Shown: positions 7,749 through 27,606 of the stretch, one piece after another | How positions within the stretch are numbered: position 1 is the stretch's first letter | Layout: every line of letters starts with the position of its first letter | Source of the DNA: Escherichia coli | Lineage (GTDB): Bacteria; Pseudomonadota; Gammaproteobacteria; Enterobacterales; Enterobacteriaceae | Reading direction: 5' to 3' (one strand) | DNA length: 64,000 nucleotides | NCBI GenBank assembly: GCA_023061495.1 | Contig: GCA_023061495.1_3643.1 | The notes under the pieces: model-generated | The model's input: only the letters and a program-made list of their open reading frames with translations | What the model was told of the DNA's origin: nothing | Databases searched by the model: none | Program-made: the position numbers and the translations under genes

Positions 7749-8974
7749 TGAGCGTTATTCAACAATTCGCTAACCCGATGAATCCGCGTGAAACTGTTTT
7801 GCTGGCTCACGGCATGATCAAGCGTGTTAGCATTAAACCTATTAAAGGGGCTGATCCTGCAACAGGTATTAAAACCACCGTGTGGCAAGGTAAGAAAATT
7901 GAATCCAGCCACACTATCTCTTTACTGATTTCTGAACTGGATTCCTCTGATAACCTGCTTCAAGGCGGTGAAGAAGTCTGGATCAGCATGGGTGATAAGC
8001 TGCTTAAACCGGGGCATCAAGACTCTGTCTCTGTTAAGATTGATGACAAGTGGGAAACAGTAACGCCAGGATGGATCGTAAATATTCCTTTGAAGGCAAA
8101 CGAGCATAACGGTAAGACCTATTACAAAGGCTCACTGGCTAAGATGGTTAAGCTGGGTGTAGGAGAGGCTCCAGCAGCGACTCAGCAGCAAAAACAGCAA
8201 CAAGGTGCACAATCACAAGGCCAGAAGCAGAAACCTCAGCAGAATGCCAATCAGGACGTTTTACGCATCTATGGTGATGTGACTCAGATTGTTGGCAACG
8301 TGGTTACTGTCAATGACCACAAGATTGGCGAAGGTGCTATGGTTGTCACCGATGAGCAGCTTAAAGATCTGGTGGTAGGTGGTCGTGTTGCAGCCATTGT
8401 TGACAAAGACACAGGAAACATTATCAGTGGTTTCAAAGCCTATCCCCCTAAGGCAGAGAACGGCACTCAAGGCTCCGGTGGCAAGCGTAAATCCTCTTAC
8501 GACCCTATCGGTGTGGAAACGGGGCATAGCATCAATGCGTTGCAGATCATCCTGGATCGCGGGTTTAAGGTAGACGACCCACTGGGCGTGGCTAAAACAC
8601 TGCACGTAGTCACCATTGAGCTTAAGAAAGAGTATGCTCAGGCCACCAACCGAACTGAAGATGAAGTAGGTGCCAGTGTCGGTAATGCGGTGTTGAACGC
8701 TTGTCGCCGTATTGACAAGAAAACGAAAGTTGATGATTTTGCAGCGGCAATTACTGCAGAAGCAAAAGATGTCTTGACTAATCTGGCTGAGCCGTTGTAC
8801 GATTGGATCAAGAACGGTGCTGGGTCAACTGACCATCAAGAACCTCAGGCTACCAAACAGGAAGCAGCTCCACAGCAAAACACTGTAGACGCTCCTCCTG
8901 TAGATGATGGGGAAGACGACCCGATGGATCAGAATCCGGCACAGTATGATTTCGATGACTCGATCCCCTTCTGA
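7748..8974 (+). CDS. ssb: Single-stranded DNA-binding protein (long form, Q-rich linker, acidic C-terminal tail)
   Basis: C-terminus ...DDGEDDPMDQNPAQYDFDDSIPF matches the bacterial SSB tail (E. coli ...DFDDDIPF); Q/G-rich linker before it. Confidence 0.65.
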   Translation: MSVIQQFANPMNPRETVLLAHGMIKRVSIKPIKGADPATGIKTTVWQGKKIESSHTISLLISELDSSDNLLQGGEEVWISMGDKLLKPGHQDSVSVKIDDKWETVTPGWIVNIPLKANEHNGKTYYKGSLAKMVKLGVGEAPAATQQQKQQQGAQSQGQKQKPQQNANQDVLRIYGDVTQIVGNVVTVNDHKIGEGAMVVTDEQLKDLVVGGRVAAIVDKDTGNIISGFKAYPPKAENGTQGSGGKRKSSYDPIGVETGHSINALQIILDRGFKVDDPLGVAKTLHVVTIELKKEYAQATNRTEDEVGASVGNAVLNACRRIDKKTKVDDFAAAITAEAKDVLTNLAEPLYDWIKNGAGSTDHQEPQATKQEAAPQQNTVDAPPVDDGEDDPMDQNPAQYDFDDSIPF

Positions 8975-8982
8975 GTCCAATT

Positions 8983-9561
8983 ATGAAATGCAAACGTTGT
9001 GGGGAGGACAAGGAGGCCTCCGACTTCTATACCAGCAACAAATCAACGTGCAAAGAGTGTTGCAAGAAGGCCAGTAGAGAGTCTGACCAATTTGCTAGAG
9101 ACTCTTCCGAAAAAGGTGTAATACGCGTGTTGTACAAGGCTCAAAAGTGCAACAGCAAGCAAAGAGGTCACCCTCCTCCGACTTACACCAAGAAAGAGTT
9201 TAAGGATTGGCTATACCTAAACGGTTACAAAGAGTTGTATGACCAATGGGTAGCCAGCGGATACGACAAAAGGAAAAAGCCTTCTTGTGACAGGATAGAT
9301 GATTTCAAAGGATACTCTTTTGATAATATCCGTTTAACGACTTGGGGAGAAAATAAAGACAAACAGACAGATGATATTCTGTTGCATAGGAGCACCAGTG
9401 GTAGACGGTGTAAAAACGTAAGAAGACTGGATAGGAATGGTAACATTCTCAAAGAGTGGGTATCTCACAATTCTTGTAGAAGAGAAACCGGAATATGTGT
9501 TGATTACTACATTCATGAAAAAATTCCAGCTCCAGATGGATACTTCTATGAATACTTTTAA
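8983..9561 (+). CDS. Zinc-ribbon protein with degenerate HNH-like and NUMOD-like segments (homing-endonuclease-like)
   Basis: N-terminal CxxC...CxxC; DNIRLTTWGENKDK resembles HNH_3 C-terminal strand but catalytic His pattern absent. Confidence 0.45.
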   Translation: MKCKRCGEDKEASDFYTSNKSTCKECCKKASRESDQFARDSSEKGVIRVLYKAQKCNSKQRGHPPPTYTKKEFKDWLYLNGYKELYDQWVASGYDKRKKPSCDRIDDFKGYSFDNIRLTTWGENKDKQTDDILLHRSTSGRRCKNVRRLDRNGNILKEWVSHNSCRRETGICVDYYIHEKIPAPDGYFYEYF

Positions 9562-13738: not shown

Positions 13739-13839
13739 GATATTTATGGTAGTATTTATTTTAAAATTATAAAAATTTTAGGCGATGAGGGAAAATATGT
13801 AATGGATTTTCCCTTATTTATCAGATATTTGCAGATATT

Positions 13840-14250
13840 TGGAAATCCTTAGAAAATCAGAAAATGGATCGAAAACTAAAATGGATTTTTCAGAGTAGGC
13901 GCGACAAGCTGAATAACTCATCCTACCGTTTGCACCATATTCCAGGCCACCATTATAGATTTCCCACACATGCTCACATCCTTCTACTAGAACTTCCTCC
14001 ACTTACCCTTGACCTTTTATGGTAATAATCTAACCACTATCTTGAAGTTGCAGTGCAGCTTTCCAGGTACTCGATCTGTTTTTCGTTTCAAAGATTGAAT
14101 TTTCTGAAAATTTTTCTCGATAAATTTTTCGGTACTCGATCTGTTTTTCGTTTTCTGAATCAGATTTTCTGGGAATCGTTCCGGCGCTCGACCTGAAATT
14201 TTTGGGGACGAAATCGATTTTTCGTTTTCAGAAATGGATTTTTAAAATTT
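13840..14250. repeat. AT-rich non-coding region with iterons (23-bp perfect direct repeat at 14066-14088 and 14131-14153; several AAAATGGAT and TTTTTCGTTTTC units)
   Basis: Direct repeats visible in sequence; no convincing ORF. Confidence 0.55.
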
Positions 14251-14389
14251 CTATATGGGAATATTTTAGGAGTTATTATTTTATATAGAATTGTCACGGT
14301 AGGTAATTAGCATGCTAACTAAATTTATGAAATGCGAAAAGTTCTCATTTAGAATTTTGAGTGATAATCATTCTCGTTTGCAGAATAAC

Positions 14390-14566
14390 GGGCACCCCCG
14401 GTGATTGTCTCCCGGCCCCTACTGCCCCGGCTTGTTATTATAGTAACACACAGGACAAAGAAAGCAAGAAGTTTTTGCATAAATTTTTAGACGATAATGA
14501 TAATCGTTCTCATTTCATGCAGCGCCCATCCCCGGTGGTTGTCTCCCCCGTCACCGGTGCCTGCCG
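14390..14566 (+). repeat. Two copies of a GC-rich element (core CCGGTG(A/G)TTGTCTCCC) in an AT-rich intergenic region; third copy inverted at 22498-22540
   Basis: 14390-14431 and 14525-14566 share core and upstream GATAATC(A/G)TTCTC flank; potential stem CCGGTG/CACCGG. Confidence 0.45.
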
Positions 14567-14770
14567 TCCTTTCGATATGTATATTGTGCCACCTGGCGGG
14601 GCCGCTGTCAACACTTTTCAAAAAATTTTTCTAACCTGATGCGCTAACCGCTGCAACCTGGCGGGGCCAGCCTGGCAGGACCTAACTGACCAGGTAGGGG
14701 AGAATGAAGGCTTGCAAACCTGGTAGGCCTATGCTATAGGATAAGTAACAATTGAAGAGGAGGTACAAAA

Positions 14771-22983: not shown

Positions 22984-23247
22984 ATGAAACGTCTTGATCA
23001 GCTCAAACTAGTTCAGTACATGGCCTACAAAGTTCTTGAAGTTCAAAAAGGTAGCAAAAAAGAGGTTTGCGAGAAAGCATATAAGATCTTTACCCGTAAA
23101 AAAGATGATTGGATGTTACGCCAGACCAAAAAGGCGGACATCTTGGGGTACCTGGAAGAAGAGATCCGGCTTGAAGAACAAGAAGAGATCCGCCGCAGTG
23201 AGGCAGATTATCAGGCAGCTTGGGAAAACTGGATGAGCAACAAATAA
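22984..23247 (+). CDS. Hypothetical small charged protein
   Basis: ATG 22984 after AAAGAGGTAAACATC; leader hairpin GGCC-AAAA-GGCC. Confidence 0.55.
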   Translation: MKRLDQLKLVQYMAYKVLEVQKGSKKEVCEKAYKIFTRKKDDWMLRQTKKADILGYLEEEIRLEEQEEIRRSEADYQAAWENWMSNK

Positions 23248-23314
23248 TACAACAAGTTACGGTCAGGGGGGGTAATAAAGCCCCTTGATCACATAAAAAT
23301 TATGCTATCCCTGG

Positions 23315-23343
23315 TTGACAGGGATCGGCAGTTTTGCTATATT
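23315..23343 (+). promoter_or_regulatory. Sigma70-like promoter (TTGACA-17-TATATT)
   Basis: Hexamers upstream of gene 23393. Confidence 0.55.
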
Positions 23344-23392
23344 CTTTTTTGAAGGGAAGTTGTAAGAAAATTAACTAAGAGGTAAAAACACC

Positions 23393-23812
23393 ATGAACAT
23401 TAAATCTAATAATCCGGCATATAGCTTTGATAACGCTTTTTGTCACGGTCCGGCGGCGAAAGGATTCGAAATCGATGGTAAACTAATTATTGTCAATGTT
23501 GACGGGGAAGAGGTTGCAGTATATCCGGTGGCAGACGTTAAAAGCCGTCTACAATGCCGCATCGATGTTACCGCCTATCAGCTTGATCCGGTCCGCATAG
23601 TTGCCCTGGTCCTGGAAGAAGAAATTAAAGCAATGCACCACAGCAACAAGTTTATTGGTGACGCTCAAGATAATATGAAGGTATGCCGCCATAAAGTTAA
23701 TGAAGTGCTTAAAGAGTACGGTTATAAAGATCTGATGATCAAACGTGAGGAAAAATTCCGCTACCGTAACGACCTAGCAAATCGGATTTTTGAAATATAC
23801 GAATCATTATAA
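23393..23812 (+). CDS. Hypothetical protein
   Basis: RBS AAGAGGTAAAAACACC-ATG; ORF track. Confidence 0.6.
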   Translation: MNIKSNNPAYSFDNAFCHGPAAKGFEIDGKLIIVNVDGEEVAVYPVADVKSRLQCRIDVTAYQLDPVRIVALVLEEEIKAMHHSNKFIGDAQDNMKVCRHKVNEVLKEYGYKDLMIKREEKFRYRNDLANRIFEIYESL

Positions 23813-26410
23813 TTTTTTAACTGAATTATCAAGGGGCTTAGGCCTGTCTGCTCTTCCCCCTACCATAAACGGCCCTACCTGGCAAGTGGAATAATTGACG
23901 GGCCATCAATCCAGCACACTGTACAAATATACATATAAAAATAACTATTGCATAATCTTTCATCTTGTGGTAGCAGGGCCATTTTTACACGTTTTTCCTT
24001 CCAAAAATGCACGTAATGCAACTATTGCACAAAATTTAACCTGATACACATCTTCAGTATACTGTCAACAATTAAAAACACTTATAAGTCATACACTTAC
24101 ACCACCACAAAAGCGTGTCCTACGTGAAAAATCGGGTGTAACTATAGCCGCCAGATCTCAGAATTCACGTACGCACATCATTCTATAGCCTGCAAAGTAT
24201 TTATTCCAACCACAGAATAACGGAATAGTCAATACCTGTACAAAATAATTATTCGTACAAACTGCATAACATAAACCTGCCCAGGTGTCAACATTTTTCG
24301 TAAACAGTCCTAAATTGTCACGATAGGTTACTATAATCAGAGAAATCTTTAGTCGTCTAATGTTTACTGCACATAACTATACTGATTGGAATCATTAGAT
24401 GACTAAGAGAAAGATAAGAAATAGTTAACAATGTAATTGTTTTACCTGTAACAATAAGGCAACTATGCAAACGAATGCCATGGCGCGACGGAGTCGCGAC
24501 ATAATATAAAAGCAGTAACAATCACCCCCGTGATAGTTTGTCTGCAATCTATTAGTCAGATCATAGTTGCCTTGTATTCAGTTAATCATGACATAATAAG
24601 CAAGGCAACTATAGATCTGCTAATAGTTGCCCTGCTTTTATATTATGTCATAGAAACGCCCGAAGGGGTGACCTAGCCACCTGGCATAGCCAGCGAAAGA
24701 TTATTAGCTTGCTAGTTGTAAGCTTGTTGGCTGTTAGCTTGTCAATTGTTAACTTGCTAATTGTTAAACTCGGGAGCATAGCCCTCGTCTCAAGGGTGTT
24801 TTCATGCAAACGAATGTCATGGCTTATCATCTCTGTGTAAACAGTTTGGGCGTAAACAGTCTATGCGTAAATAGTGAGATATGGAATAGTAACAGCCGTT
24901 ATTGTGTCATATTGTGTGACATTGTGTCAAAGGTAAAAGTGTCAAAAGTGACAAAAGTGTATAAGGTGTCAGACAAGTTTTTCTCCTCTTTGTCAAGTGC
25001 TGCATGGAAAATTTACAAACTGGTATGGTAGCATTTTTGCGGCCCTGTTTACATTCAGGAGTGTATGTATAATCCTTGTGGTGTGGGCGTTTAGACGTCT
25101 AGACGGTCAGAAGTCCGCAGGTTAATAACTAATCTATTGGTTGTTAACTATATCCCCCACAAATAATAAGAAATGCAATTGTTATATGCGTAAACAGTAA
25201 CTCATGTTATCAATCCATGTATGTATCGCCAGTGGTGCGCATAATGGGTATTATGTTAAATTGCCCGTAATGATAACGATTCTCACAATGATAAGTATTC
25301 TCATTCGCCCACACAAAATAGCTTGCAAATGTTGTGCCACTGTGTGAACGGCCTCGCCTATTAATTTGCCTCACTGCCCCGATATTTGAGAATTGTTATA
25401 AGAATGAGAAGTATTCCCATTTCGTCCGCCTGGCAGCGCTCCTGTAGGTCAGGTCAAAATCGTGGCAGAACTGGACCCCCCTTCAGATATTTCTGGCTGA
25501 CTCTTCAGGTCTGTGTGGGAAAAGCCAACCTCTCCGGCGGGGCAGGGGGTCTGCAGGAAAAAAATTGCAGGTCAATTAAAAAATTTACGTGGTGTATGAA
25601 GCGCTCTTCAGGTAAGGCAGGTATTATGGGATGAAACCCTCTTCAGGCAATGATATTTGTGGGTGTGATATTTGCTGGAAAGCCAGATATGACGGGACTC
25701 CCGGCGGGGCAGGGGTAGTACAGGCAGGGAAAATGTGGAGAATGTGGTGGGTAAATTGATCAGGCAGGTAGAGTATGGAATATGTTACAGGTATGTTAAA
25801 TATGGAGGTAAGATATTTGTAAGATTTGTGTGTAAAATCAAAGACTTAAGTGGTGTTGTGGTATTTTCTATAAATAATTCAAGTTTAATAGGTAATATTT
25901 GTCTCTATCCACTTTGTGTGGTAACCAGATTCAGATGAAATTGGTTTACAAGTGTATACATAATATACAAATTAAAGATACAAGAAACCCCCCTCCCCCT
26001 TCGGCTACCATTCACCTTTTCCTCTGACTGGTACTTAAACACTTATTCAGACTCTTCAGGTTATCACCCATATACCATATGGCAGTGACTGGTGTCCTCC
26101 GGCCCCTCTTTCGTCACCCGTCCGCTTCGCCATGCTAATGCCATAGCTAACTGTTCGGTTGTTCACCCTGTTCACTCAGGTGTATCTCCATACCCCTTCA
26201 AACCGAAGAGAACAGAAAACCCGAATTACTCGGTAAAAGAAAAGAGAAGAACTTAATTTTATCAGGATAGGCAAGAATGTCAAGGAATGACTGCTCACTA
26301 AACAAGCAAACAGTCATGTGTGGGAGGTAAGTGATTGTGGTGGTAGGAAATTTAGTTGAAAGATGTGTTATAGGTGCTTCCAGCACTTTAGCCGGGCAGC
26401 TAATTGTGTG
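23813..26410. other. 2.6-kb repeat-dense non-coding region at the convergence of + and - strand transcription units
   Basis: No convincing ORF with RBS; multiple families of 10-16 bp tandem or dispersed repeats and palindromes. Confidence 0.6.
24465..24823. repeat. Nested palindrome/iteron unit flanked by 20-bp direct repeats (ATGCAAACGAATG(C/T)CATGGC at 24465-24484 and 24804-24823)
   Basis: 18-bp perfect inverted repeat GACATAATATAAAAGCAG (24498-24515 / 24632-24649); 12-bp inverted repeat ATAGTTGCCTTG/CAAGGCAACTAT (24562-24573 / 24601-24612); three 15-bp AGCTTGT..ATTGTT-type units 24721-24766. Confidence 0.55.
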
Positions 26411-26626
26411 TCAGTCCAGCGGTTCATCCTCTACTTCACTGAAATCAATGTTCATGGTCTCTTCCCAGCCATCGATCTCAGCACAAGAGTGGAGTTCTTT
26501 AGGGTTTACTCCCAAAGCCTCAGCAACAGAGTCCATATTTAACACCTCTGGCAGATAAGATTCATCAAATTCAAGGTAAATCAGGCCACGAGTGTTGTTA
26601 GCTCCACCAAATATTTCTATTTTCAT
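26411..26626 (-). CDS. Hypothetical small acidic protein (MKIE... family)
   Basis: ORF track; N-terminus MKIEIF and acidic C-terminus like neighbouring paralogs. Confidence 0.5.
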   Translation of the reverse strand: MKIEIFGGANNTRGLIYLEFDESYLPEVLNMDSVAEALGVNPKELHSCAEIDGWEETMNIDFSEVEDEPLD

Positions 26627-26745
26627 GAAATCTCCTCTGGAAATGAGAGTGTGAACAGGGTTATACGTTCCAATGCGCAGGAATTATGCTCGTTTGCCTC
26701 TTCAGGCCATGCTTTAGCATGATAAACTTATGTGGGCTCGGTGCT

Positions 26746-27135
26746 TCATAGTCTCCCACCCCTGAACTCTTCGTGCTCAGGCATGATAGAGAACCAGATG
26801 TATACGATGTCCTCCCACGTCAGGTCATCAGCCTCAGGATCCACCTGAGACGAAGATAAAGAATCCTCAGAATTGAAGTTTTCCTCTGTAGTCACTTCTT
26901 CAGATGACTCTTTAGGTGCATGTGTGTTGGTCATGTTCCACCCGTTAGTATTCCGGCAACAGCTGCTATGGACGTAATGATCATCAGGATCACCACTAAA
27001 ACCTCGGATAATGTTTTCATTGCGTATTCCATATTCTCCAAACGATGTGAGGATACTATCACAGGAGCGGTAATGTGTCAACAGAAACGCCGCGAGGGTT
27101 TGGTTAAAATCCGAGCGTATGGTGATTTGGGTCAA
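26746..27135 (-). CDS. Hypothetical acidic protein
   Basis: ORF track; start uncertain. Confidence 0.4.
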   Translation of the reverse strand: MTQITIRSDFNQTLAAFLLTHYRSCDSILTSFGEYGIRNENIIRGFSGDPDDHYVHSSCCRNTNGWNMTNTHAPKESSEEVTTEENFNSEDSLSSSQVDPEADDLTWEDIVYIWFSIMPEHEEFRGGRL

Positions 27136-27294
27136 AACGGACGTGCGTTCTCGCTACGCTCGAAATAGAGAGTTGTTTGTAAGCGGCTCTTAAACGCTCT
27201 GTAGTGAGATTATTCATCTAAGGTATGCAATCGTGCACCAGATAAAGAAAAGGACGCCACAGAGCGTCCTAGGTGCCTTAAATTTGATATTTTG

Positions 27295-27606
27295 CTATAC
27301 CCATGAGGGCTTGTCCAGATTGGAGTAGCTGAAAGGGGTCAAAAGGTGATTGTCAAAATCTTTCAAACTATCCAAATCTTTTTCCTCGTCCTGACACCAT
27401 CTGTGCCTACATTTATTGTTGTAGTGCATAGAATGCATAGCGTTCTGCAACTTAACAGGCACAAGTGATTCAGGAGTAGATAGTATTGTCGGGTATGCCA
27501 GAACCACCTCAAACAGTGGAAACACATCGAAACTAAAGTCTACCTCTGCAGAGGTTGATGGCATATAGGAGTATTTAGCCGCCCTTGTAGACATAATCCA
27601 CCTCAC
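27295..27606 (-). CDS. Hypothetical protein
   Basis: ORF track; start uncertain. Confidence 0.4.
   Translation of the reverse strand: MRWIMSTRAAKYSYMPSTSAEVDFSFDVFPLFEVVLAYPTILSTPESLVPVKLQNAMHSMHYNNKCRHRWCQDEEKDLDSLKDFDNHLLTPFSYSNLDKPSWV

Follow-up and report, generated by a model that had tools for sequence, protein, structure and literature searches.

Two convergent arms of genes in the window (the whole stretch of 64,000 nucleotides analysed here) are separated by 2.6 kb of DNA without genes, which raises the question of what this repeat-dense gap is. The limits first assigned to it (23813-26410) were found to hold. Our answer is that the gap is very probably a T7-type concatemer junction and packaging region, that is, the genome-end region of a Vequintavirus. 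Judged from sequence comparison, the source of the window is a member of this genus (an rV5-like myovirus of E. coli). The locus was 92-97% identical to that of Vequintavirus members, and the gap region was 87-95% identical to 122 Vequintavirus records, in which it is mostly unannotated. In the rV5 paper, a "non-coding" box is drawn at the homologous position, and in AlexBoehm, which has a curated BASEL annotation, the homologous 2.5 kb was left empty between convergent arms.

Coding content of the gap and its flanks

The gap is bounded and partly filled by the following features.

23393-23812, plus strand: last ORF of the plus-strand arm, 139 aa
23813-24497, no strand: left non-coding spacer, AT-rich, 81-95% conserved (50-nt bins), with scattered GCAACTAT and GTAAACAGT units
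25960-26410, minus strand: block with the highest local conservation (97-100% among genus members), with the motif GTGAACA twice
26411-26626, minus strand: last ORF of the minus-strand arm

The first-pass annotation had described the interval as gene-free, and the alignment of relatives bore this out for DNA lying between convergent arms. In the flanking genes, the variable alignment columns were strongly codon-periodic (e.g., 11/6/52, p = 1e-12), and this was the case for all flanking ORFs tested except 26746-27135, which is probably not one gene. In contrast, no codon periodicity was found in any 240-nt window of the gap (all p > 0.16), a test whose power was low only at 25973-26330, where few columns vary; it was likewise absent from the left spacer. 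Small ORFs are annotated in the homologous region of NHEP1, Mangalyan, JEP1, and Murica, and some records carry up to 16 small CDSs there, as would be expected if the gap held unannotated small protein genes. However, we consider this very improbable, given that the substitutions in the gap lack the periodicity that marks every flanking ORF tested except one, that most gap ORFs would begin at GTG or TTG and lack a ribosome-binding site, and that the ORF spanning the conserved block 25960-26410 is not kept in the diverged IMG/VR contig L002. Hidden genes were rejected on the periodicity test together with this loss of the ORF in L002.

Most of the gap was conserved as much as, or more than, the neighbouring genes. 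The flanking proteins contained no Pfam domains, and their PHROG matches were families of unknown function; the labels "DNA translocase FtsK" and "Rel homology" that some records attach to them were unsupported. The 71-aa flanking protein was restricted to the genus, with no reach to other genera, and the IMG/VR search with the 139-aa flanking protein returned only three loci, with L004 laid out differently. A tRNA/tmRNA scan of the whole 64-kb window found none.

Direct terminal repeat and genome ends

Three cis-acting roles had been offered for the interval at first pass, namely a replication origin, a packaging or terminal-repeat junction, and a non-coding RNA locus. The junction was supported, in that the 458/459-bp direct terminal repeat (DTR) of relatives maps to the middle of the gap and records open at its edges; the origin and the non-coding RNA were unsupported in this window.

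24972-25430, no strand: DTR, 459 bp; left edge GGTGTCA^GACAAG, right edge GTCCGCC^TGGCAGC (the caret marks the edge)

The HdK5 and YN3 records carry an identical 459/458 bp at both ends, which maps to 24972-25430. At least nine deposited records from independent laboratories, these two included, open exactly at 24972 or 25430; the others include bov11CS3, bov10K2, bov22_2, Aya, Pr121LW, and ECP2309. Because the edge positions were taken from deposited records, they may be 1 nt off (458 versus 459). Terminal redundancies of 458 bp have been reported for EdH4 and HdK5 (PMC6563267), and 459-bp repeats with one fixed packaging start for Gotham (PMC7471380). In the Klebsiella phage KPP-1, which belongs to the same subfamily, a 514-bp DTR was classified by PhageTerm as T7-type, with two-fold coverage (PMC9862379). 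A contrary Vequintavirus report gives headful, permuted packaging by PhageTerm (PMC13211470). The virion DNA of relatives has been shown or reported to start at 24972 and end at 25430, with the repeat at both ends, and for the source phage we infer the same termini from these relatives, which are 92-97% identical. The window and most records hold a single internal copy of the DTR; for the window, the reason is that its sequence represents the genome in collapsed or circularised form.

The DTR makes up just 18% of the gap. It was conserved, whereas its immediate outer flanks were hypervariable. Two diverged lineages, KPP-1 and L002, were used for comparison. In KPP-1, the DTR likewise lies in a gene-poor gap between convergent arms; it aligns with the DTR of the window in reverse orientation only, with homologous ends. 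The motif TGYYA^RRC (outside^inside), which was derived after the fact from the four known edges (window and KPP-1), is present at all four and stands in inverted orientation at the two edges of the window. The natural edge variant of Mangalyan, TGCTA, still fits TGYYA.

Repeats, palindrome, and predicted promoter around the terminal repeat

The DTR is embedded in further elements, listed here from left to right.

24465-24484 and 24804-24823, plus strand: direct repeat ATGCAAACGAATGCCATGGC, 20 nt, 95% identity
24498-24649, no strand: long imperfect palindrome, ~150 nt, GGCAACTAT/ATAGTTGCC units, 18-nt perfect outer arms, hairpin- or cruciform-capable
24700-24766, plus strand: tandem array 1, period of 15 nt, 4.5 copies of TTAGCTTGY/ATTGTT units; relatives have between 0 and 4.5 copies
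24837-24875, plus strand: tandem array 2, 15-nt period, GTAAACAGT units, 2.6 copies; 2 to 7 copies in relatives
24900-24971, plus strand: tandem arrays 3 and 4, 9-10-nt period, (T/A)TGTGTCA and AAAGTGTCA units
25269-25305, no strand: two adjacent 19-bp dyad sites, AATGAKAA-N3-TTCTCATT, Fur-box-like with 7-1-7 shape, inside the DTR
25385-25421, no strand: another pair of these dyad sites, whose end is 9 bp short of the right DTR edge
25431-25600, no strand: indel hotspot directly outside the right DTR edge, with short repeated CTCCTGTAGGTC/GCAGCACTCCAGT units
25499-25724, plus strand: module CTCTTCAGG ... GGAAAGCCA ... CTCCCGGCGGGGCAGGGG, two copies plus an extra CTCTTCAGG, highly conserved
26256-26283, minus strand: predicted sigma-70-type promoter TTGACA-16-TAAAAT, TG-extended, 11/12 match

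All of the short-repeat families listed at first pass were present and were enriched in the gap relative to the rest of the 64-kb window, although the single CGTCTAGACG palindrome (one copy, at 25096; p = 0.04) was not significant alone. Five of the seven copies of GCAACTAT in the window fall in the gap (p = 2e-6), as do four of the eight copies of CTCTTCAGG (p = 2e-4), 5/9 copies of CGTAAACAGT with at most one mismatch (p = 1e-5), and both copies of CCGGCGGGGCAGGGG and of AAAGTGTCAAA. CTTCAGG copies were found in the L002 and KPP-1 gaps too. The GTAAACAGT units of array 2 are also dispersed through the gap on both strands (8 copies versus 1.1 expected).

The four adjacent arrays at 24700-24971 were delimited with Tandem Repeats Finder. 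Array 3 comprises three copies of a 10-mer (24900-24929) and array 4 comprises 5.7 copies of a 9-mer (24924-24971), the last unit of which adjoins the left genome terminus. GTGTCA occurs four times in the 330 bp outside End A, versus 0.19 expected. In each of the three lineages, the repeated unit equals the cut flank (GTGTCA, TATGCCT, and ATTGCTA), and each unit was enriched (p <= 2e-4). KPP-1 has no true tandem arrays beside its DTR, only dispersed copies of the flank motif; therefore, arrays are not universally required. Phages with ~92% identity differ in how many array units they carry and in the sequence of these units, a hypervariability that could equally reflect neutral slippage. At the indel hotspot outside the right edge, some relatives have a ~50-nt insertion.

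The palindrome is the largest feature of the gap and was absent from the first-pass annotation. It ends 323 bp outside the left DTR edge and folds strongly (z = -9.5 as DNA, -10.6 as plus-strand RNA, and -9.8 as minus-strand RNA). Its 61 pairs were almost invariant in 12 distinct relatives, so a covariation test was uninformative within the genus. The distance from End A to the palindrome is 323 bp in the window, 328 bp in L002, and 309 bp in KPP-1; fold scores cover the window and KPP-1 elements, with z = -11.1 for the latter. The ATGCAAACGAATGCCATGGC pair brackets the palindrome and array 1, and L002 has the same bracket. The half-sites of the dyads were invariant across relatives with a variable spacer, and the gaps of KPP-1 and L002 contain the motif as well. 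At the right, the predicted promoter is directed leftwards to the DTR, ~820 bp away. L002 keeps it as TTGCAA-17-TATAAT with a diverged spacer, and in this lineage the block 25960-26410 is conserved in islands.

These elements suggest how the junction could work. The terminase would recognise it in replicated concatemers and cut at both repeat edges during packaging. The inverted TGYYA^RRC edges would fit nicking of opposite strands at staggered positions, with strand-displacement synthesis then duplicating the repeat, a scheme proposed for T7-type phages. The arrays outside the left edge, whose unit is the outer cut flank, are most likely reiterated recognition or positioning sites. The ~10-bp phasing of their TGTCA units suggests, from spacing in the sequence, that a protein may bind on one helix face. 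The palindrome, ~320 bp outside the left edge, would be a conserved structural element, perhaps a hairpin or cruciform in end processing. It may also stop transcription from both directions and so shield the junction from the convergent arms. A DNA-binding factor or transcription is probably brought to the junction by the dyad sites in the DTR and by the inward promoter at the right. The roles given to the palindrome, dyad boxes, and promoter are ones that we only infer.

The same elements bear on three other explanations. In one, the locus is a replication origin in which iteron-like arrays, AT-rich stretches, and the palindrome bind an initiator, either host DnaA or a phage protein, so that the DNA opens, with the DTR merely co-located. 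This would be compatible with a packaging role, and the four adjacent arrays beside a large palindrome, together with three perfect tandem DnaA boxes inside the DTR equivalent of L002, point towards it. GC skew changes sign at the gap and the cumulative curve turns there, but according to the rV5 authors skew shifts simply track the direction of transcription. Moreover, the 64-kb window contains no perfect DnaA box, and the strict consensus with one mismatch was observed once in the gap (1.2 expected). GATC was depleted in the gap rather than clustered (4 versus 14.7 expected), and no Rep, helicase, or DNA-binding domains were found in the products of the flanking genes. The arrays also vary among closely related phages, unlike iterons matched to a conserved initiator. 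AT-rich 40-mers were present in the gap but unremarkable, as were IHF counts. An origin is therefore regarded as unlikely.

We consider it somewhat less likely still that the locus encodes a non-coding RNA, either a regulatory RNA, especially from 25960-26250 downstream of the minus-strand promoter, or the palindrome acting as a long RNA hairpin. The strong sigma-70-type promoter (26283 to 26256) is kept in L002, where its hexamers and spacer have changed, the block downstream of it is locally the most conserved, with island-like rather than codon-like conservation, and the palindrome gives a strong RNA fold on each strand. However, the Rfam scan of 23000-27500 returned no family at E <= 1, folding of 25960-26255 was not significant on either strand (z = -1.0 and -0.2), and in the sliding-window z-score scan the palindrome was the only structured segment. 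Its score was just as good for DNA and did not depend on the strand, as predicted for a DNA-level inverted repeat, and no clear intrinsic terminator but only a weak 5-bp hairpin follows the promoter. With the conserved promoter in place, the right-hand part could still yield an unstructured transcript. The remaining explanation, a passive termination or spacer zone between convergent units with slippage-prone repeats that have no specific function and the DTR as the sole functional element, appears slightly more doubtful again. It would account for the convergent arms, the hypervariable arrays, the palindrome arms that end in CTGCTTTTATATT on both strands, and the labelling of the palindrome as a terminator in the Murica record, where a terminator is placed directly 3' of the last gene. 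It does not sit well with a gap mostly conserved at or above the level of neighbouring genes, or with features that recur in lineages whose gap has otherwise diverged, namely where the palindrome lies, how the array unit matches the flank of the cut, the dyad boxes, and the CTCTTCAGG copies. In addition, the KPP-1 palindrome has no U-tract and therefore is not a simple terminator.

Comparison with known systems

The preferred reading, a concatemer junction with packaging signals, was compared with known phage systems. In other Vequintavirinae (the rV5 box, the HdK5, EdH4, and Gotham repeats, and the KPP-1 DTR), the same locus was found with nothing different in kind, and the repeat length and edges are the same in Vequintavirus genus members. 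The existence of a non-coding terminal-repeat region is thus already known in close relatives. The fine anatomy of the region appears to be undescribed: the palindrome, the relation of array and cut flank, the inverted edge motif, the dyad boxes, and the inward promoter were not found in the accounts of rV5, EdH4/HdK5 (PMC6563267), Gotham (PMC7471380), or KPP-1 (PMC9862379).

The concatemer junction of T7 and T3 has a 160-bp terminal repetition flanked by the short-repeat arrays SRL and SRR, an inverted repeat near the junction forms a hairpin intermediate, and phiOR transcription enters the junction. Pausing of RNA polymerase at the junction starts packaging (PMC3276506). The gap resembles this arrangement in its short exact DTR with unique ends, the reiterated short sequences beside the repeat, the palindrome close to one edge, and the promoter aimed at the junction. 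It differs in belonging to a 137-kb myovirus rather than a 40-kb podovirus, in a repeat three times longer within a far larger non-coding region (2.6 kb), and in flanking arms that are both transcribed towards the ends, not away from the left end. Unlike T7 and T3, the rV5-like phage lacks an RNA polymerase of its own, and its promoter is of the host sigma-70 type.

At the pac sites of P1 and SPP1, which package by headful and have permuted ends, clusters of short repeats flank the terminase cleavage site. The gap is similar in its reiterated short motifs directly beside the cut but has fixed ends with an exact repeat, and the depletion of GATC makes P1-type Dam control unlikely. The injection-stop-signal region of T5 is non-coding, is rich in repeats, palindromes, and DnaA boxes, and lies inside a terminal repeat of ~10 kb that codes for pre-early genes. 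Repeat-dense non-coding DNA tied to the terminal repeat is common to both, as are predicted host-factor boxes in or near the repeat (Fur-like in the window, DnaA in L002), whereas the repeat described here is 459 bp and non-coding. Two-step injection is not known for rV5-like phages.

The gap findings open no new biological category. The true ends matter in practice, as these phages are a widely isolated therapeutic and typing group in which most of the ~120 deposited genomes were opened arbitrarily and several carry spurious small genes in this region. The edge motif, flank-matching arrays, palindrome, dyad boxes, and inward promoter are candidate packaging signals for a large myovirus with T7-style ends, and signals of this kind are a prerequisite for engineering, packaging in vitro, and the rebooting of genomes.

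Compared with the 19-bp Fur consensus GATAATGATAATCATTATC, the dyad sites in the DTR match at 14/19 positions, and compared with the 7-1-7 form TGATAAT-N-ATTATCA they match at 12/14; the phage half-site is often TGAGAA, not TGATAA. A literature search for a link to Fur, an origin, or the transcriptome in this phage group gave nothing relevant. It is conceivable, though on balance improbable, that the DTR serves as a docking platform for host DNA-binding proteins (through Fur-like boxes in the vequintaviruses of Escherichia and Klebsiella, and through DnaA boxes in the diverged relative), with the palindrome at its fixed distance (~320 bp) as a hairpin primer or processing structure and lineage-specific arrays co-evolving with the terminase cut site. 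End processing, or end protection and injection, might then be coupled to host physiology, such as iron status. Such coupling was not found described for this group in the literature consulted on rV5-like phages. Among E. coli genomes, the DTR gave only a weak 46-nt match, in an unrelated accessory island. The best match to the Fur consensus in the 64-kb window (17/19) lies at 14493, and the dyad boxes were the sole homology shared between the gap and a second non-coding stretch at 13.7-14.8 kb.

The non-coding gap between convergent gene arms

A database search with the 2.6-kb gap (window 23813-26410) returned 122 phage records that matched it full-length at 87-95% identity, nearly all from Escherichia phages of the genus Vequintavirus, and the gap was mostly without annotation in these records. 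Vequintaviruses are rV5-like myoviruses of ~137 kb. The gap coordinates and flanking genes proposed in the first-pass annotation agreed with the ORF map and with the GC-skew sign change, and all of its named repeat motifs were found and were significantly concentrated in the gap compared with the remainder of the 64 kb. In the curated BASEL record AlexBoehm, the plus-strand arm of small genes stops at the 23812 homolog and the minus-strand arm at the 26411 homolog, and the space between the two arms is empty. The rV5 genome paper draws a grey "non-coding" box without ORFs at the position of the gap, with the proposed transcription units converging on it and skew shifts that merely follow transcription direction (PMC3606486). 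The identity of the gap in close relatives is already in the literature; its fine anatomy appears undescribed. Approximately 19 "Campylobacter phage" records (MG0656xx, marked UNVERIFIED) proved to be typical Vequintavirus genomes with ~92% identity to this E. coli phage, which suggests mislabelling or contamination of that data set.

Fourteen relatives were aligned to the window, and variable columns were tallied per codon position. In five of six flanking ORFs tested, a single position of the codon took the overwhelming share of these columns (e.g., 11/6/52, p = 1e-12). Because the sixth, a mechanical ORF of 129 aa at 26746-27135, showed no substitution periodicity (58/45/60, p = 0.29), it is probably not a single gene; AlexBoehm has several smaller genes annotated at the equivalent position. 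Codon periodicity was absent in every 240-nt window across the whole length of the gap (all p > 0.16), in keeping with the earlier description of the gap as gene-free, and because of this absence the small CDSs annotated there by some records are very probably spurious. The 139-aa gene bordering the gap (23393-23812) varies in presence: it is absent from pangalan, A142, and HdK5, and is found at 84-92% identity in IMG/VR contigs that are otherwise diverged.

The terminal repeat and its surroundings

Several database matches started or stopped within the gap. In the HdK5 record, the first 459 bp equal the last 459 bp and correspond to window 24972-25430, here called the direct terminal repeat (DTR), and the YN3 record carries 458 bp at both ends that map to the same region. 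The records of bov11CS3, bov10K2, bov22_2, Aya, Pr121LW, and ECP2309 each begin precisely at either the left or the right DTR edge, and that of EdH4 begins at roughly this place, as judged by its distance from the 71-aa flanking gene. For Gotham, terminal repeats of 459 bp and one fixed packaging start have been reported (Dias et al., PMC7471380). The mapping of the relatives' terminal repeats and record openings to this place indicates that the window holds a collapsed concatemer junction and that in phages of this type the virion DNA starts at 24972 and continues round to 25430. Counter to fixed ends, one paper published a headful PhageTerm call for another Vequintavirus, which we regard as a minority view. 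In ON286975.1 (phage I29), the 459-bp DTR query aligned at 104224-105275 in two joined pieces spanning ~1.05 kb, which may mean that the assembly kept two repeat copies at the concatemer junction.

Conservation was profiled in an alignment of 10 sequences in 50-nt bins, and three regimes were distinguished. The DTR was conserved (~0.88-0.97 per bin), and its immediate outer flanks were the least conserved DNA of the neighbourhood.

Elements of the gap and related sites (window coordinates unless stated; KPP-1, a Klebsiella phage; L002, an IMG/VR contig)
24498-24649: long palindrome, ~150 nt; z = -9.5 as DNA, about -10 as RNA of either strand
24645-24990: tandem arrays, left flank; unit sequence and copy number variable, unit types kept (10-sequence alignment)
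25445-25595: indel hotspot with short repeats, right flank (10-sequence alignment)
25995-26400: nearly invariant block (10-sequence alignment)
26283->26256, minus strand: strong predicted sigma-70-type promoter, pointing at the DTR
Right half of DTR: dyad motif, two double sites
14331-14514: dyad motif, three sites
KPP-1 gap: dyad motif, five sites
KPP-1, 309 bp outside the homologous edge: palindrome, 206 nt, z = -11.1
L002, 328 bp outside the predicted edge: palindrome, bracketed by the same direct repeat as that of the window

Tandem Repeats Finder resolved four adjacent arrays at 24700-24971, and the final GTGTCA unit directly abuts the left terminus. On the other side, rV5_ev158, EduardKellenberger, A142, and bov11CS3 carry a ~50-nt insertion near window ~25445, some 15 nt beyond the right DTR edge, with two small hairpins and CTCCTGTAGGTC direct repeats on both sides. 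The palindrome at 24498-24649, absent from the first-pass list, was the sole strongly structured element in the gap. Its 61 pairs were almost invariant in relatives and substitutions fell in bulges and loops, a pattern compatible with constraint, with too little variation for a covariation test.

The 19-bp dyad motif AATGAKAA-N3-TTCTCATT had 18 matches in the window vs 3.3 expected. Its half-sites were invariant across relatives while the spacer varied, which is the signature of a dyad bound by a protein; the binder may be Fur or a phage protein. The motif is shaped like the E. coli Fur box, and the match to the Fur-box consensus was 14/19 in the DTR. In the plus-strand arm, 13740-14770 is another stretch, of ~1 kb, that lacks convincing ORFs and is conserved in ~117 relatives; of its three Fur-box-like dyad sites, GATAATGATAATCGTTCTC at 14493 matched the classical consensus at 17/19, and the C-rich module CAYCCCCGGTGRTTGTCTCCC follows two. 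L002 keeps the minus-strand promoter, with altered hexamers and a spacer that has diverged. The sequence downstream of it showed island-like conservation; coding signal and RNA structure were looked for there, and neither was detected.

Diverged lineages and the packaging reading

For KPP-1 (genus Mydovirus), a 514-bp DTR of "T7 type" has been reported, backed by coverage and PhageTerm (PMC9862379). It likewise sits in a gene-poor gap between convergent arms, and it aligned with the window DTR in reverse orientation only, with homologous ends. All four edges of the two repeats read TGYYA|RRC from outside to inside (GGTGTCA|GAC, GCTGCCA|GGC, GGTGCTA|GAC, and ATTGCTA|AAC); the motif is therefore inverted between the two edges of the repeat. 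L002 has a flanking gene in common with the window and weak but colinear gap homology, and its GTATGCCTA array terminates at the predicted cut. In each of the three lineages, the 330 bp outside End A (the edge with the palindrome outside it, the left one in the window) were enriched in the cut-flanking motif (p <= 2e-4), and CTTCAGG copies occurred in all three gaps. Inserted within the otherwise gene-free terminal region of L002 (IMGVR_UViG_3300045988_159287) is a 256-aa ORF (8716-9486) that contains an HNH motif (EIDHIDRDPSNNHLDNL) as well as an AP2-like segment and presumably encodes a homing endonuclease.

The repeat with its two edges, the fixed ends of relatives, the absence of coding in the gap, and its conserved architecture are each shown here or reported. 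Beyond these, we infer that terminase would cut at the inverted edge motifs and that the repeat would be duplicated via staggered nicks and strand-displacement synthesis. The arrays may be reiterated recognition sites co-evolving with the cut flank, the palindrome may be a hairpin used in processing, a bidirectional terminator, or both, and the dyad boxes and the inward-pointing promoter could draw factors or transcription towards the junction. These putative roles of the arrays, palindrome, and promoter resemble junction features of T7, where short-repeat arrays lie beside the terminal repeat, a hairpin intermediate forms, and transcription enters the junction. The last of these is touched on in PMC3276506.

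The first-pass observation of the gap is real, and of the cis-acting roles it offered, the packaging/terminal-repeat junction is correct. A classical origin is not supported in the window: a perfect DnaA box is absent throughout it, the "iterons" are hypervariable among relatives, no initiator gene was found adjoining the gap, and the gap has far fewer GATC sites than expected (4 observed vs 14.7 expected) in a window rich in this site (361 in 64 kb). A dual origin and packaging role is possible, since L002 carries three perfect tandem DnaA boxes (TGTGGATAA, 7845-7884) inside its DTR equivalent. A structured RNA locus is likewise unsupported, with no Rfam match and no strongly structured gap element besides the palindrome; an unstructured transcript from the conserved minus-strand promoter is possible. 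The gap architecture is conserved across lineages, which contradicts a reading of the gap as mere "junk spacer".
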